A stretch of 64,000 nt of DNA from Eubacteriales bacterium (GTDB lineage: Bacteria > Bacillota > Clostridia > Oscillospirales > CAG-272), in assembly GCA_045531485.1 (NCBI GenBank), contig JAZSEC010000018.1:3170-67169 (forward strand), written 5' to 3'. The notes under the pieces were generated by a model that saw only the letters and a program-made list of their open reading frames with translations, had not been told where the DNA came from and did no database searches. Both the position numbers and the translations under genes were made by a program. How positions within the stretch are numbered: position 1 is the first letter of the stretch; each line of letters opens with the position of its first letter. Below are positions 44,601-64,000 of the stretch, piece by piece.

Positions 44601-44629
44601 TTGACTTTAGGTAGTTTTCAAGTTATAAT
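44601..44629 (+). promoter_or_regulatory. Near-consensus promoter at the head of the SipW/TasA-type locus
   Basis: TTGACT, 17-nt spacer, TATAAT, 65 nt upstream of the 44694 ATG. Confidence 0.55.
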
Positions 44630-44693
44630 AAGGCGAATAAGTATCTTTTTATATATTATATATTTAAAATTTACGAAAGGAGGCAGCAAGAAA

Positions 44694-45191
44694 ATGAAAA
44701 ACAAAAGCATAAACATGTTAATAGCCTCGGTGCTTGTTTTAACAGCTATGTCCATCATGCTTTTATTCTTTCTCATCGATGCGGACAGAAAATTCGAGGG
44801 TGAGATCACCGTTGAAGAGAACGGAATCACCGAGACCGTTATTCCCATCAGAGATCTTGTGCTGACCCCCGGAGCAGAAAAGGATTATGACGTTAATCTA
44901 TATTGCCGAGCGACCGGATCATATCACGTTATGATTGAATATACGGAGGACGTCGACGGAGGCATGAAGCACTTCGTTGATACCACCGTTGAATTTGATG
45001 GCGAGGTCATCTACCACGGACCTCTGACAGAGCTTATAGACGAGGGTCTGACCATTGAATTTGACACCATACTTGACGACGCAGTACCCGCAACACTCGT
45101 ATTCAGATACGTAATGCCCCTCGAAACCGGAAATGAGGCCCAGGGTGCCTTTTCCGACTTCGATATAACCATCACCGTTGAGAAGAATTAA
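44694..45191 (+). CDS. Small membrane-anchored TasA-fold-like protein in a tapA-like position
   Basis: 165 aa, AAAGGAGG RBS and an N-terminal TM anchor. It ends in 'GNEAQGAFSDFDITITVE', the C-terminal strand motif shared with the other paralogues. It lacks the A[WL]F[TS] cleavage motif. Confidence 0.55.
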   Translation: MKNKSINMLIASVLVLTAMSIMLLFFLIDADRKFEGEITVEENGITETVIPIRDLVLTPGAEKDYDVNLYCRATGSYHVMIEYTEDVDGGMKHFVDTTVEFDGEVIYHGPLTELIDEGLTIEFDTILDDAVPATLVFRYVMPLETGNEAQGAFSDFDITITVEKN

Positions 45192-45211
45192 CGGTTAAAG
45201 GAGCTATTTGT

Positions 45212-46000
45212 ATGGAAAATAAAACAAAAGTTAAAAAAATACTGACCATAGTCGGTGACGTGCTGCTGTATCTGTTTATCGCGATTTGCCTTGTGGGCGT
45301 TATCATCACCATCACCTCAAAGAAGGATGAGGACGGCACCGCAAACATCTTCGGTATGCAGATGCGACTGGTAATCTCTCCCTCAATGGAGAAGTGTGAG
45401 CATACCGACGTAAGTAAGTTTGAGATAAAGGATATACCCGTTAACTCCATGGTATTCATTGAGGTTGTTCCCGAGGATGATGCCGAGGCGGATGAGTGGT
45501 ACAAGGCACTCAGGGTCGGTGACGTTCTTACCTTCAAGTACGTTTACACCAGACAGGAGACCATAACCCACCGTATCACCTCCATCGAGCCTAAGGATGA
45601 CGGCAGCGGATATATTATTGAGCTTGAGGGTGACAACAAGAACGATGCATCGGGTGTTCTTACTCAGGTGATCGATACCTCAAAGCGTAACAGCCCCGAG
45701 TACGTAATAGGTAAGGTCGTCGGACAGAATTACATTTTCGGTCTGTTTATGGCTCTGCTCAGGTCCCCCATCGGACTGATATTCGTGGTTATAGTACCTT
45801 CTCTCGTTATAATCGCCTTTGAGATCGTTAAGCTGGTAAAGCTTGCAAACGAGGATAAAAAGAAGAAGGAGCAGCAGGAGAAGGAGGAGCAGCAGAATGA
45901 GCTTGATATGCTCAGACGCAAGCTTGCCGAGCTTGAAAAACTGAAGGAAGAAGGCTCCGATACCGCCGCTGCGGAAGGCACCTCGGAAGAGGAAAATTAA
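45212..46000 (+). CDS. sipW: SipW-type (ER/archaeal-type, S26B) signal peptidase I, copy 1, with a long charged C-terminal tail
   Basis: 'IFGMQMRLVISPSME' (Ser box), 'ETITHRI' (His box), 'EGDNKND' (GDN box), a second TM helix and then a tail of about 55 aa rich in K/E/Q. Confidence 0.88.
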   Translation: MENKTKVKKILTIVGDVLLYLFIAICLVGVIITITSKKDEDGTANIFGMQMRLVISPSMEKCEHTDVSKFEIKDIPVNSMVFIEVVPEDDAEADEWYKALRVGDVLTFKYVYTRQETITHRITSIEPKDDGSGYIIELEGDNKNDASGVLTQVIDTSKRNSPEYVIGKVVGQNYIFGLFMALLRSPIGLIFVVIVPSLVIIAFEIVKLVKLANEDKKKKEQQEKEEQQNELDMLRRKLAELEKLKEEGSDTAAAEGTSEEEN

Positions 46001-46050
46001 TTTTGATTTCGCAAAGATTTTAATAAAAATTTATATAAAGGAGAACCAAA

Positions 46051-46788
46051 ATGGGAACCAGTATGGAAATTTTGTTTATGGTGTTCATGGTTGTAGTTTC
46101 CGTTATTGCACTGTTTGCAGTAATGGTAGTACTCAGGGATATCATAAAAGAGATCCTCGACGCTCGCAAGAAGGAAAAAAATTGCAAGTGTGACGAAGAG
46201 CCCGCTGCACCCGCACCCGCTCCCGCTGCACCCGCACCCGCTCCTGTTGCACCTACTCCCGTAGTAGAGCCTGTAGCAGAGCCCAAACCTGTAGAGCCCG
46301 CCGAGGAGACCGCTGCACCTGCAGAAGAGTCCGCGACAGAAGAAGATGGTAAAATCAGCTTTGCAGCAGGACAGCAGCAGACCATTGATGAGAAGTATCT
46401 CGAGCTTTCTCCCGAGGCAAAGGGCTGGTATGATGAGATCATCAAGCACGCCGCTATCGTTGAGGGCAGCAGACGCTTCAAGAACGCACGCTATGAGGAA
46501 TACAAGGTTGGTAACAACCGTCTTGTACGTATGCTCATTAAGCGTGGTGTAGTTCACTGTGAGTTTATTTTACACAACTCCGATTTCAAGAACTACGTAA
46601 ACGAGAATAAGATCTCTGTAAGACAGGCAGCGACCACCATGCGTATCGACAGCAAGGATACCGTTGACGCAGCTAAGAACAGCATTGACATCGTCGTAGC
46701 GGCTATTGCTGAGGAGCGTGAGTACAAGAAGCAGCTTGCAAGAGAAAAGCGTAAGGCAGCAAGAGAGCTTGCCGCAGCAGGTAAGTAA
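46051..46788 (+). CDS. Single-pass membrane protein with a Pro/Ala-rich linker and a basic C-terminal domain (unknown function)
   Basis: AGGAG RBS. An N-terminal TM helix is followed by positive charges, suggesting the C-terminus is cytoplasmic. 'PAAPAPAPAAPAPAPVAPTPVVEP' is encoded partly by a perfect 21-bp x2 tandem (46201-46242). No family recognised. Confidence 0.55.
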   Translation: MGTSMEILFMVFMVVVSVIALFAVMVVLRDIIKEILDARKKEKNCKCDEEPAAPAPAPAAPAPAPVAPTPVVEPVAEPKPVEPAEETAAPAEESATEEDGKISFAAGQQQTIDEKYLELSPEAKGWYDEIIKHAAIVEGSRRFKNARYEEYKVGNNRLVRMLIKRGVVHCEFILHNSDFKNYVNENKISVRQAATTMRIDSKDTVDAAKNSIDIVVAAIAEEREYKKQLAREKRKAARELAAAGK

Positions 46789-62216: not shown

Positions 62217-62250
62217 GGTCTACACCTAATCAGGACAAAGGAAAAGGCTA
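62217..62250 (+). repeat. Degenerate copy of the same repeat
   Basis: GGTCTACACCTAATCAGG..., compared with GGTCTACACCTCATCCGG at 62093. Confidence 0.45.
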
Positions 62251-62269
62251 TCACGCCTTTTGGGTACCA

Positions 62270-62510
62270 AAGCCAAAAATAATTTTGGCATCGGAACAAA
62301 TTAATTTCCAAAGCAAATTAAATCAAAATTCCAAAGCACAAGCAACGCATATTTTAAACCAAAGCACGAGCAAATCAAAGGCTCGAAAAAGCAAAGCAAA
62401 TTCCCCAAAAACAACGCAAAATTCAACCAAAAGCAAAACGCAAAGCAAATTAACCAACCCCGCAAAGCATTTTATTTGCAAAAACAAAAAACGAAAAATA
62501 AAGCTAGGCT
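62270..62510 (+). other. CA-rich, G-poor low-complexity tract (CAAAG/AAAGCA reiterations)
   Basis: About 240 nt dominated by CAAAGCA-like units. Its only ORF (62285-62524, TTG start, no SD) encodes a K/S/Q low-complexity peptide. Confidence 0.6.
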
Positions 62511-62572
62511 TGACAGTCAAATGAGTCATTTTAAGAAATTCATTCACCAAATTCAGAAAGGAGGTTGCCACG

Positions 62573-63139
62573 ATGGGCCTTTTCGATCTCTTCAAAAAGA
62601 AGCAGTCTGACGAGAACAATGGCGTTAACGCGGATAAAATTTTCATTCGTAACGTCGGCGTGTCTTTCGTAGGAATAATCATCTGCATCGTGATGCTGTC
62701 CGCATCAAGCTATGCCTGGTTCAGCACCACCATCGAGTCCAACAACTCCATAACCTCCTCTGTTTATAAGCTGGATATCGGCGTCGTTGAAGAGGATGGC
62801 GGGGTTACTCCGCTGACCGCTACGGTTACCGAGAACGGCGACTACGTTTACAGCCTCGAGGCAGGGAAGACCTATACGGTCACCATCACCGCCCTGGCAG
62901 AAAACACCACCGGCAAGACAGGTTACATAAAGCTCCGTACGAGCAAGATGGCAGAGGACGACCGTGCCCTCTACTCCGAGCAGATCGACCGCGGTGATAC
63001 CATCAGCTTCAACCTCCATTACACCGACTCCACCGACGTTACCATCATCGAGGGCTGGGGAATGTCCAGCGTCCCCGAGGACGAAAGAGATATTCTGAAC
63101 GGTGGCTCCTACGGCGATTCTACCGCAAATGGAAGCTGA
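62573..63139 (+). CDS. 188-aa protein with a SipW-cognate-type signal (divergent)
   Basis: GGAGG RBS and a long n-region, then 'MLSASSYAWFSTTIESNNSITSSVYKLDI'. It lacks the C-terminal NxYQG...Q strand motif. Confidence 0.65.
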   Translation: MGLFDLFKKKQSDENNGVNADKIFIRNVGVSFVGIIICIVMLSASSYAWFSTTIESNNSITSSVYKLDIGVVEEDGGVTPLTATVTENGDYVYSLEAGKTYTVTITALAENTTGKTGYIKLRTSKMAEDDRALYSEQIDRGDTISFNLHYTDSTDVTIIEGWGMSSVPEDERDILNGGSYGDSTANGS

Positions 63140-63194
63140 TTTTTAACTGAGATTATTAATTGAATTTTTTATATAACGAAAGGAAAAATAAACT

Positions 63195-64000
63195 ATGAAG
63201 ACAACAAAAAGATCGTTTTTGACAAGTTTAGTTGCACTTTTAGTATTACTTTCCATGTTCGTTGGCACAACATTCGCATGGTTTACCGACATAGCAATTA
63301 GCTCCGGTAACGTAATTCAGGCTGGTAAGCTTGATATCGCACTGGTTAAGGGAACCCATACAAATAACGGCTGGAACTGGGAAGATACTAATGGCGAAAA
63401 GATCTTCAACTATGACAAGTGGGAACCCGGCTACACCACTTATGCCGCTATCGGCATCGAGAATAGAGGCAACCTGGCAGCTAAGGTTACTGCTAAGATC
63501 AGCCTGAATGGTACTCCCACAATTCTCGGTGACGTTATCGAGGTTTATGCGGCTGTGGACTTTGATAGCTTTGATCCTACCGCACGTCCCGACTTTACCG
63601 ACACTAACGCTTGGATAAGCCTCGGCACTATGGCCGACATCCTTAGCGGCAAATCTGCCGTTCTCCCCGAGCGTGTTCTTGACCCCGACATGCGTGCTCG
63701 TATGCTCATCGCCCTTCACATGAAGGAGGATGCAGGCAACGAATATCAGGGCATTGACCTCGGTGCAAACTTCGACATCACCGTAATGGCAACCCAGGCA
63801 AGCAAGGAGAGCGACTCCTTCGACGAGAAGTATGACGTTGACTCCGAATGGCCCTACGTGGCAGTTAAGTTCCACGCACCTAAGAGCGTTGCGGACAATC
63901 TCGTTGTTGATCCCGCAAGCAATAAGACCACTCTTGCCGCACCCGTAACCCTCGGTGATGCTAACGGCATCAAGGCAGAGATTAACGAAAACGTTGAGCT
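63195..64000 (+). CDS. Fourth 'FAWFT'-class TasA-like-domain protein, 3'-truncated by the window end
   Basis: The ORF is open to the window edge, so it is absent from the ORF track. 'GTTFAWFTDIAISSGNVIQAGKLDI' ... 'DAGNEYQGIDLGANFDITVMATQASKESDSFDEKYD'. AAAGGAAAA RBS. Confidence 0.85.
   Translation, partial: MKTTKRSFLTSLVALLVLLSMFVGTTFAWFTDIAISSGNVIQAGKLDIALVKGTHTNNGWNWEDTNGEKIFNYDKWEPGYTTYAAIGIENRGNLAAKVTAKISLNGTPTILGDVIEVYAAVDFDSFDPTARPDFTDTNAWISLGTMADILSGKSAVLPERVLDPDMRARMLIALHMKEDAGNEYQGIDLGANFDITVMATQASKESDSFDEKYDVDSEWPYVAVKFHAPKSVADNLVVDPASNKTTLAAPVTLGDANGIKAEINENVE

Follow-up and report, generated by a model that had tools for sequence, protein, structure and literature searches.

Here we describe a cluster of 12 genes on the + strand of a contig from an Eubacteriales bacterium (JAZSEC010000018.1, assembly GCA_045531485.1). 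With moderate confidence we interpret it as a conserved gene cluster on the chromosome of an uncultured Clostridium of the gut or rumen that encodes a SipW-dependent fibre or display system of the TasA superfamily. The system would be anchored by the product of the first gene (g01) and would carry starch-binding and adhesive passengers. The stretch of DNA analysed, called the window, is 64,000 nucleotides (nt) long; the locus studied runs from 44.6 kb to the window end and its genes span 44,694-64,000. They comprise two signal peptidases, seven full TasA-like modules, two partial ones (g01 and g11) and one membrane protein (g03). The analysis shows homology, a TasA-like fold, cognate signal motifs, the catalytic residues of the peptidases, the lack of other anchors, synteny and the size of the family. 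An initial annotation, made from the sequence alone, had listed the genes with their sizes and order, and the list of open reading frames (ORFs) bears it out from g01 to g12.

The locus can be read as two joined parts. The first (part A) would comprise g01, SipW-1, g03 and three small subunits with the motif A↓LF(S/T), where the arrow marks the predicted cut. g01 (44694-45191) is predicted to be a type II membrane protein of 165 amino acids (aa) with an N-terminal signal-anchor and an extracellular TasA-like acceptor half. It is followed by SipW-1 (45212-46000, 262 aa), a signal peptidase I of the endoplasmic reticulum (ER)/archaeal type, and by g03 (46051-46788), a Pro/Ala-rich membrane protein of 245 aa. 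The three stand-alone TasA-like subunits that come next form class A: g04 (46915-47550, 211 aa, A↓LFS), g05 (47657-48340, 227 aa, A↓LFT) and g06 (48452-49042, 196 aa, A↓LFT).

The second part (part B) would begin with SipW-2 (49044-49862, 272 aa), a second ER/archaeal-type signal peptidase I, and continue with class B modules, whose signal ends TFA↓WFTD, placed ahead of large passengers. These passengers would be made up of immunoglobulin (Ig)-like stalks, a conserved core, CBM26, Listeria-Bacteroides repeats and a Hint domain. g08 (49911-51593, 560 aa) joins a class B module (approximately residues 1-225, A↓WFTD) to a passenger of 335 aa. g09 (51795-55166, 1123 aa) has a class B module, a stalk, a core of approximately 300 aa and two CBM26-like repeats. 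The giant of the locus is g10 (55447-62028, 2193 aa), which has a class B module, a region like that of g09, a long passenger, repeats, the Hint domain and a tail. g11 (62573-63139, 188 aa) is predicted to consist of a cytoplasmic N-extension, a transmembrane (TM) segment, the sequence SYA↓WFST, a donor-like strand and a small beta-sandwich. g12 (63195-64000, more than 268 aa) has a class B module followed by a passenger that continues past the window end.

The seven full modules (g04, g05, g06, g08, g09, g10 and g12) are supported as members of the TasA superfamily with a predicted beta-sandwich (jelly-roll) of the TasA type. The assignment is based on Pfam and NCBIfam matches, on profile comparisons and on an AlphaFold model for which the TasA fibre and an archaeal bundling pilus rank highest in the PDB. 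The Pfam family PF12389 (Peptidase_M73, gathering score 22.5 bits) is matched above its cut-off by g04 (30.9 bits), g08 (25.2), g09 (23.0) and g12 (23.1) and just under it by g05 (20.1) and g10 (19.8); it has no match to g06, g01 or g11. TIGR04088, the SipW-cognate signal family (cut-off 19 bits), is matched above cut-off by g08 (25.9 bits), g09 (21.4), g10 (23.8) and g12 (24.7), in a locus that also holds SipW genes. These matches span only the signal and the first strands. g04, g05, g06 and g11 fall short of E 0.01 with this family, and the motif is present in them by eye. Against the fused module, hhalign gave full-length matches for g04 (99.4%), g05 (98.5%) and g06 (99.7%, E 2.5e-26), a range of 98.5-99.7% over the modules, and all six other modules are tied to g09 by hhalign or by alignment. 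Both signature motifs align in the same seven proteins in which the initial annotation had seen them. With the two partial relatives the paralogues number nine, in agreement with the earlier count of at least eight, and the reading of the family as relatives of TasA and CalY is upheld by the PF12389 and TIGR04088 matches above cut-off.

The fold was modelled for residues 1-240 of g09 with AlphaFold2 (AF2) from a 50-sequence alignment, giving a predicted local distance difference test score (pLDDT) of 81 and a predicted TM-score (pTM) of 0.69. When this model was compared with the PDB by Foldseek, the first match was the TasA fibre 8aur (E 4.6e-6, prob 1.00), followed by AbpA (7ueg, E 1.4e-4), an archaeal bundling pilus. 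The identity of the g09 module to TasA is approximately 12%. A profile of 50 g09-module sequences also had TasA (5of1) as its best match among PDB sequences; this match is not significant (E 0.26), and the motifs PG..N.G.LA and N.YQG..ATQ line up in the weak alignment.

The most conserved part of the module is the mature N-terminus. All of 70 diverse members keep W, F, T, D, S, N, G and L within approximately 18 residues past the cut, and judged from these sequences this invariance exceeds the need of a peptidase site. AF2 leaves this stretch of g09 unstructured, outside the fold. Directly after the last strand, every class B module has the acidic motif E.DSF...YD..A.WP (50560-50630, 52440-52510, 56095-56165 and 63840-63900), which is also invariant in the 70 diverse members and is missing in the subunits of class A. 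The motif may form an inter-subunit or metal-binding segment. In TasA a C-terminal segment at the corresponding place makes an inter-subunit contact (PMC9674648).

In 195 of 249 class B modules three residues co-occur: an Asn of the presumed donor strand, the Glu of WEPG and, 20 residues further on, a Lys. These residues (N-E-K) are Asn39, Glu78 and Lys98 in g09 and have equivalents in g08 and g12; g10 has Asn instead of the Lys. The set recalls the N-E-K isopeptide triad of C. perfringens BsaA, with a putative equivalence of positions. A tip position for g10 was considered from its missing Lys and rejected, as most orthologues of the giant keep the residue and its loss shows no correlation with protein size.

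The features of g01 suggest a membrane anchor or terminator. The g01 family aligns with the module from WEPG to ATQ only (hhalign 92.3%, E 5.4e-7), that is, from the 'PG' strand to the last strand, and the first ORF had indeed been annotated as having the C-terminal motif alone. One TM segment (residues 5-31) precedes the acceptor half, which ends GNEAQG..DFDITI, and the protein is without a SipW cleavage motif. A strict regular expression for the cleavage site matched none of eight g01-like ORFs, six of them clear orthologues and two of them weak ones (22-29 bits) that may be signal-bearing TasA-like proteins. The orthologues are from L024, L026, L029, L038, L059, L063, L084 and L085 (L001-L085 are labels of related genome loci or contigs compared with the window). 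The initial annotation had called g01 an anchor protein, and the label agrees with its homology and topology, to which the agreement is limited. No LPXTG motif with a hydrophobic tail and no C-terminal TM segment was found in the 12 proteins, whose hydrophobic segments are solely N-terminal, and no sortase was found in ten upstream genes scanned.

Both genes that had been annotated as SipW peptidases keep the catalytic Ser and His, in SPSM and THR of SipW-1 and in DSM and THM of SipW-2 (TH(M/K) in its clade). These residues are conserved across three peptidase clades (n = 6, 37 and 22 members). The catalytic Ser and His are required for SipW, as established by mutagenesis. Only SipW-2 passes a curated cut-off (TIGR02228, 63.9 bits against 51.85); with NF046067 it scores 92.6 bits (E 2.2e-26), against a cut-off of 190 for the Bacillus equivalog. 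SipW-1 has two TM segments and a charged coiled tail.

Peptidases and substrates were counted over 80 related genome loci. A peptidase was present in 37 and two or more in 29. SipW-1 is present only alongside SipW-2 (6/6), and a third, canonical SipW type (SGSMEP, THRV, KGDAN; 170-245 aa) occurs in 24 loci, in 23 of these together with SipW-2 (examples are L009:3453-4010, L018:3034-3636 and L036:6459-7079). Several peptidases per locus are the norm of the clade. The class A subunits have A↓LF(S/T) at the cut and the class B modules A↓WF(T/S) (161 of 184). A↓LF substrates co-occur with SipW-1 and A↓WF substrates with SipW-2, and one peptidase per substrate class would be a reasonable reading of these motifs.

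The passenger of g08 is kept in the gene that follows SipW-2 in L002, L007, L018, L024 and L026. g09 and g10 share a region of approximately 480 aa beyond the module (37% identity), which includes the conserved core of approximately 300 aa and the motif F.GTFDGNGHT. No sequence relative was found in the PDB for the g09 passenger, for the g10 passenger or for a profile of this core. Pfam searches of nine passenger segments gave only CBM26, Flg_new and a sub-threshold Hint match. The CBM26 starch-binding module of g09 (54141-54338, + strand; aa 784-849 of the translation starting at 51792) scores 36.3 bits against a Pfam PF16738 cut-off of 28.1 bits, and a second CBM26-like copy was found at aa 905-968 by iterated search. 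g10 has three Listeria-Bacteroides repeats (Flg_new / InlB B-repeat type, 60454-61158, E 8e-42). Orthologues of g10 with 1768-2190 aa were found in ten loci (L002, L026, L032, L038, L048, L051, L062, L063, L071 and L076).

g10 and all ten of these orthologues end in a Hint / bacterial-intein-like (BIL) domain and a tail of approximately 85 aa. The domain of g10 is located at 61327-61752, with Cys1961 as its first residue, and the conserved tail (DIExYGLYTYxDF ... KGxIT), for which no family or PDB match was found, at 61753-62025. A profile of 11 orthologues matches the BIL domains 6y75 and 6tmm (E approximately 6e-6) and the intein C-terminal splicing-domain protein 8w20 (E 0.0042), with weak matches to DnaB-helicase mini-inteins (E 0.03) and hedgehog (E 0.2). 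The Pfam matches of the g10 C-terminus are sub-threshold (Hint 19.5 bits, Intein_splicing 16.2 bits). Cys1 and the blocks GEHxFxD and GHxF are invariant. The domain is without a conserved terminal Asn, and for this reason N-terminal cleavage or transfer is more plausible than splicing. A possible function is N-terminal autocleavage, or covalent transfer of the secreted passenger to another nucleophile. Known BIL and Hint domains (6y75 / 6tmm) share the invariant Cys1 and the His blocks. The domain of g10 differs in that it is at the end of a secreted TasA-module protein of 2,193 aa, is followed by a conserved 85-aa tail rather than a toxin and has no conserved terminal Asn.

For g03 no family match was found. 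It has an N-terminal TM segment, a Pro/Ala-rich linker and a basic domain of approximately 145 aa that is predicted to be cytoplasmic. Its orthologues, which are always located between SipW-1 and g04, are 56-66% identical and share long invariant runs. Of all protein segments in the locus, this C-terminal domain (approximately 145 aa, with a basic tail) is conserved best, with such runs across five genomes. g03 could be a membrane-tethered regulator or a peptidase partner.

The g11 family aligns with the module over the signal and first strands only (hhalign 97.5%, E 6.6e-12), in line with the earlier description of the 188-aa protein as having the signal alone. Its AF2 model has a pLDDT of 73, and the best Foldseek match in the PDB is not significant (E 8.4e-3, prob 0.25); TapA and TasA are not among the PDB matches of the model. 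The identification of g11 as a TapA homologue was rejected for want of a significant PDB match of the model, despite the donor-like strand. g11-like genes occur in 22 of the 80 loci and are a conserved accessory at the distal end of related loci.

The family is large. Searched among 1.84 billion cluster representatives (50% identity), the class B profile matched 11,105 clusters when the threshold was E<=1e-3 and 4,791 when it was E<=1e-30. The best 150 clusters are almost all 336-1023 aa long, with the module at residues 1 to approximately 225 and a passenger behind it, and fusion is therefore the rule of this subfamily. PF12389 is matched by 69 of 70 sampled members of the class B family, and the passengers of the sampled members include Beta_helix, a pectate-lyase-like adhesive domain, BspA-type leucine-rich repeats (LRR) and GLUG. 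Class A g05-like subunits with passengers were observed in other genomes, with 464-472 aa (L026:7103-8521; L063:19266 onwards) and at least 1093 aa (L085:11390-14671). Fusion to a passenger thus also occurs outside class B.

In species-representative genomes a scan gave more than 598 stretches. Their sources were without exception Clostridia of the gut or rumen, namely Acutalibacteraceae, Oscillospiraceae, Lachnospiraceae and unclassified metagenome-assembled genomes (MAGs). The order g01, SipW-1, (g03), g04, g05, g06, SipW-2, fusions is kept in L024, L026, L029, L038 and L059. It is found in rearranged form in L063 and is also kept in L084, a metagenome contig found via a g03 search, which makes at least seven genomes or contigs besides the window. 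Proteins of the related loci are 26-66% identical to those of the window: the genes stay linked, with their order kept, in genomes that have diverged. In L038 the series of a g08-like, a g09-like (1084 aa), a g10-like (1921 aa) and a g11-like gene recurs as well. Another type of locus, simpler and more common, holds SipW-2, the canonical SipW, several fusions, a subunit of approximately 215 aa and a g11-like gene. A cultured isolate, Cuneatibacter caecimuris DSM 29486 (L061, NZ_SGXF01000004.1), has a 564-aa class B fusion followed by a g11-like gene.

We propose that assembly would proceed as follows. Sec would export all subunits, and their signal peptides would hold them in the membrane. The cognate SipW would then cut after Ala and free the strongly conserved N-terminal strand. 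By donor-strand complementation, known from TasA and BsaA, this strand would enter the following subunit, whose beta-sandwich is open and which is still tethered. In this way chains that contain small subunits as well as fusion proteins would grow at the membrane. g01, an acceptor half with an uncleavable signal-anchor, would take the last donor strand and keep the assembly on the cell. The passengers would stick out sideways and bind starch or other surfaces. The pairing of peptidases with substrates, the anchor role of g01 and the adhesive function are parts of this scheme that we infer.

Precedents for these steps are found in Bacillus and Clostridium. In TasA fibres a subunit's sheet is completed by the N-terminal strand of the subunit before it, and a C-terminal segment forms a second interface (PMC9674648). 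BsaA oligomers are membrane-anchored, and their growth is proposed to take place at the membrane, where a tethered new subunit accepts the strand before SipW cleavage (PMC11580942). BsaA with the FAST protein fused to its C-terminus was detected at the surface of the bacteria, the site at which BsaA oligomers occur (PMC11580942). A mechanism like that of BsaA and TasA is suggested for class B by the invariant mature N-terminus, the complete acceptor fold, the post-module motif and the lack of another anchor.

Several points weigh against this interpretation. The polymerisation of the fusion proteins is itself inferred, and steric hindrance of a TasA-like fibre could arise if every subunit carries a passenger of 1,000-2,000 aa. 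The PF12389 alignments are limited to profile positions 3-79 of 196, with only the first 50-90 residues aligned, and the Foldseek TM-scores of the g09 model are low (0.34-0.46), which we take to be in part an effect of the model's signal helix and free N-terminal stretch. SipW-1 is under both cut-offs (TIGR02228 38.1 bits, E 1.3e-9; NF046067 56.5 bits, E 2.5e-15). The Asp of GDxN is kept in SipW-1 (GDNKND), in whose clade GDN is conserved; SipW-2 has GTNT..DD in its place, and GTxT..DD is found throughout its clade, where a nearby Asp could substitute. No nucleator was identified, because g11 is not TapA-like in its model. Several fusion genes of related genomes have no peptidase or other module within 10 kb (e.g. 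L001). The genes from g01 to g08 are tightly packed, with spacers of 1-126 nt and the start of SipW-2 only 1 nt past the g06 stop; the spacers 3' of g08, g09 and g10 are 201, 280 and 544 nt long and hold one G+C-rich hairpin each. Several transcription units are therefore more probable than a single operon.

A wider generalisation is tentative, and we would sooner doubt it than adopt it. The class B module might be a general sortase-independent connector of gut Clostridia, with thousands of adhesins and carbohydrate-binding proteins chained by donor-strand complementation into heteropolymers. These would be anchored by g01, with one gating peptidase for each subunit class, and the Hint domain of the giant would cleave its passenger or transfer it covalently. 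Such a system would be a Gram-positive counterpart of chaperone-usher pili on the TasA fold.

Of the competing explanations the one that survives best, though we consider it unlikely, separates the fibre from the fusions. Class A alone would build the fibre, or g01 alone would be a membrane socket, and each fusion would attach singly by its class B connector (at the tip, as a side adhesin or 1:1 on g01), like a dockerin or the pilin domain of FimH. Class B modules are 37-62% identical among themselves (g08, g09, g10 and g12) and just 15-29% identical to class A, and each class would have its own peptidase. A terminal or single-copy place would suit a module that is nearly always ahead of a bulky passenger, and two-domain adhesins occupy the tip in archaeal tafi and in chaperone-usher pili (PMC11821415). 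However, class B keeps both a donor strand and a complete acceptor fold and could form chains. Many loci with class B fusions and SipW-2 lack class A subunits or g01, and stand-alone class B subunits of 215-245 aa are known in other genomes.

It is less probable still that the signal and jelly-roll serve only for export and folding, and that the proteins are shed to the biofilm matrix or medium, as soluble adhesins or carbohydrate-binding proteins, with no defined cell-anchored fibre. TasA and BsaA are matrix proteins that are partly released (PMC9674648, PMC11580942), the proteins here have no cell-wall anchor, and some fusion genes are solitary in other genomes, as in L001. Against release stands g01, the membrane-anchored, acceptor-only paralogue that is kept at the head of the locus. 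A mature N-terminal strand and a post-module motif that are invariant across thousands of proteins are hard to explain by export alone.

A spore-surface appendage or a coat-associated system is a very improbable reading. TasA was first described as a spore-associated protein (CotN), and it is named 'spore coat-associated protein N' in the PDB. A GerA-family gene (41504-42931) is located 1.7 kb upstream, but it is on the opposite strand and a phosphoesterase gene lies between it and the locus. A sporulation-type regulatory signal was not seen, nothing ties the locus to sporulation, and the passengers are starch-binding and adhesin-like. The reading as camelysin-like secreted metalloproteases, which only the Pfam family name Peptidase_M73 favours, has next to no probability and was rejected, as no HExxH or other zinc motif was seen by eye in the aligned modules (without a pattern search), the M73 name is considered likely to stem from CalY having been mistaken for a peptidase (PMC11580942), and the matches of the fold are to fibre subunits.

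The SipW-dependent display proposed here can be compared with several known systems. The tapA-sipW-tasA locus of B. subtilis (8aur) also has an ER/archaeal-type SipW that adjoins its substrates, and the signal ends small-x-Ala before an aromatic-rich strand. TasA has a beta-sandwich with the motifs PG..N.G.LA and N.YQG...TQ and is the best structural match of the g09 model. TapA, the nucleator there, and g11 are both accessory proteins with a donor-like strand, but g11 is not TapA-like in its model. B. subtilis has one peptidase with two substrates, whereas the present locus encodes two peptidases along with nine TasA-related proteins. The locus further differs in its membrane-anchored, acceptor-only paralogue (g01) and in class B passengers of 335 to approximately 1,970 aa.

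The sipW-bsaA-bsaB-bsaC locus of C. perfringens is likewise a clostridial SipW locus with TasA-like paralogues, and it encodes a larger SipW-dependent protein, BsaC (70 kDa, vWA) (PMC7395162, PMC11580942). It has one peptidase and two TasA-like proteins, BsaA is small, and heteropolymers have been proposed there. The papers on this system describe no N-terminal TasA module fused to kilodalton-to-megadalton passengers (PMC7395162, PMC11580942).

In the archaeal tafi, TafC is the tip, TafE the adapter, TafA the major subunit, TafF the anchor and TafD the peptidase, and an assembly terminated by the anchor is proposed (PMC11821415). Other archaeal relatives are the bundling pili AbpA/AbpB (PMC9245690) and the AbpX loci (bioRxiv 10.64898/2026.01.04.697558). 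The archaeal systems share with the present locus a dedicated signal peptidase, several paralogous subunits, an adhesin of two domains that has its donor strand at the N-terminus, and a membrane-spanning subunit proposed as terminator and anchor. However, the tafi are exported by the twin-arginine translocation (Tat) pathway, and TafF is anchored by a C-terminal TM segment where g01 has an N-terminal one. Archaeal passengers are single small domains, whereas those described here reach approximately 1,970 aa and are served by loci with two to three peptidase types.

Chaperone-usher pili of Gram-negative bacteria (adhesins FimH/PapG, terminator PapH) also combine donor-strand complementation, an adhesin made of a pilin-like and a binding domain, and a terminator. 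They differ in that the present locus has no chaperone, usher or outer membrane, and that its pilin-like module is at the N-terminus with the passenger behind it, opposite to the order in FimH. The likeness is functional only, and the weak Foldseek matches of the g09 model to the pilus subunits 8eht, 6e14 and 4y2l are the sole link found. Sortase pili and LPXTG fibrillar adhesins are similarly large and modular, with stalk repeats and terminal binding domains; here no LPXTG motif, sortase or C-terminal anchor was found.

The initial annotation had recognised no described system with so many paralogues, a duplicated peptidase and a giant fusion. This holds in part. In a literature search that was not exhaustive we found no description of an N-terminal TasA module carrying large passengers, of two to three SipW types per locus, of a g01-type anchor or of a giant ending in a Hint domain. 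However, several TasA/BsaA paralogues in one operon and their assembly into heteropolymers had already been suggested (PMC11580942), and layouts of tip, adapter, major subunit and anchor are known from archaeal relatives and AbpX loci (PMC11821415; bioRxiv 10.64898/2026.01.04.697558).

TasA-type fibres are known mainly as biofilm scaffolds of small subunits in Bacillus, C. perfringens and some archaea. The present analysis suggests that gut and rumen Clostridia have turned the TasA fold into a carrier of large adhesins and starch-binding modules, with peptidases of its own, a membrane anchor and no sortase. If true, this would be a major, uncharacterised route of surface display and of attachment to substrate or host in abundant and mostly uncultured gut bacteria. 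It would also give a testable model for the start, gating and termination of donor-strand fibres in monoderm cells, and a natural precedent for TasA fibres engineered with large C-terminal cargo.

The surroundings and the intergenic regions of the locus have further features. The genes upstream are housekeeping genes (UvrC, an RsmD-like methylase, a deaminase, RNase R, a major facilitator superfamily (MFS) transporter, GerA and the phosphoesterase), and proteins of 'Clostridia bacterium' MAGs reach no more than 90% identity to the UvrC of the window. No relatives of TasA or SipW were found elsewhere in the window, outside 44.6-64 kb. The earlier statement that every ORF is on the + strand holds for all 12 genes. 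Long - strand ORFs of 470-806 aa are nevertheless present within g08-g10 (49878-51290, 51843-53738, 55492-57912 and 58678-60171); they are assumed to be non-coding shadows of a biased coding strand.

A sigma-70-like site, TTGACT-17-TATAAT (44601-44629, + strand), is located 65 nt 5' of g01. It was present in the initial annotation and is the top promoter match of the region, at 11 of 12 positions. Promoter-like sites occur at chance frequency (34 in the region against 31.2 in shuffled sequence), and the site is therefore no statistical evidence for a promoter.

The G+C-rich hairpin 3' of g08 (51629-51656), with the core CCCGACCTTCGGGTCGGGCGGCAATAAAAG, has a copy 3' of g09 (55204-55221) that shares this core. 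A palindrome of the form TTGCC-N4-6-GGCAA, with TTTTATTGCCGA before it, is found in the leaders of g09 (TTGCCGATAGGCAA, 51721-51734) and g10 (TTGCCGAATATGGCAA, 55392-55407). The pattern occurs three times in the window against 0.4 expected, and two of the three are those in the g09 and g10 leaders. These intergenic elements, the hairpin and the palindrome, are duplicated together with their genes. The common hairpin may be a candidate terminator or stabiliser and the common palindrome a candidate operator.

Between g10 and g11, 5' of the latter, there is an A/C-rich stretch with repeated CAAAGCA(A) units at approximately 62285-62500. Rfam, searched for a riboswitch or known RNA, gave no match at E<=1 to this stretch or to the long leaders. 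In L038, a stretch at approximately 19208-19400 that is also 5' of a g11-like gene translates as QSNLQSNLQSNL, which points to a similar repeat in a diverged genome.

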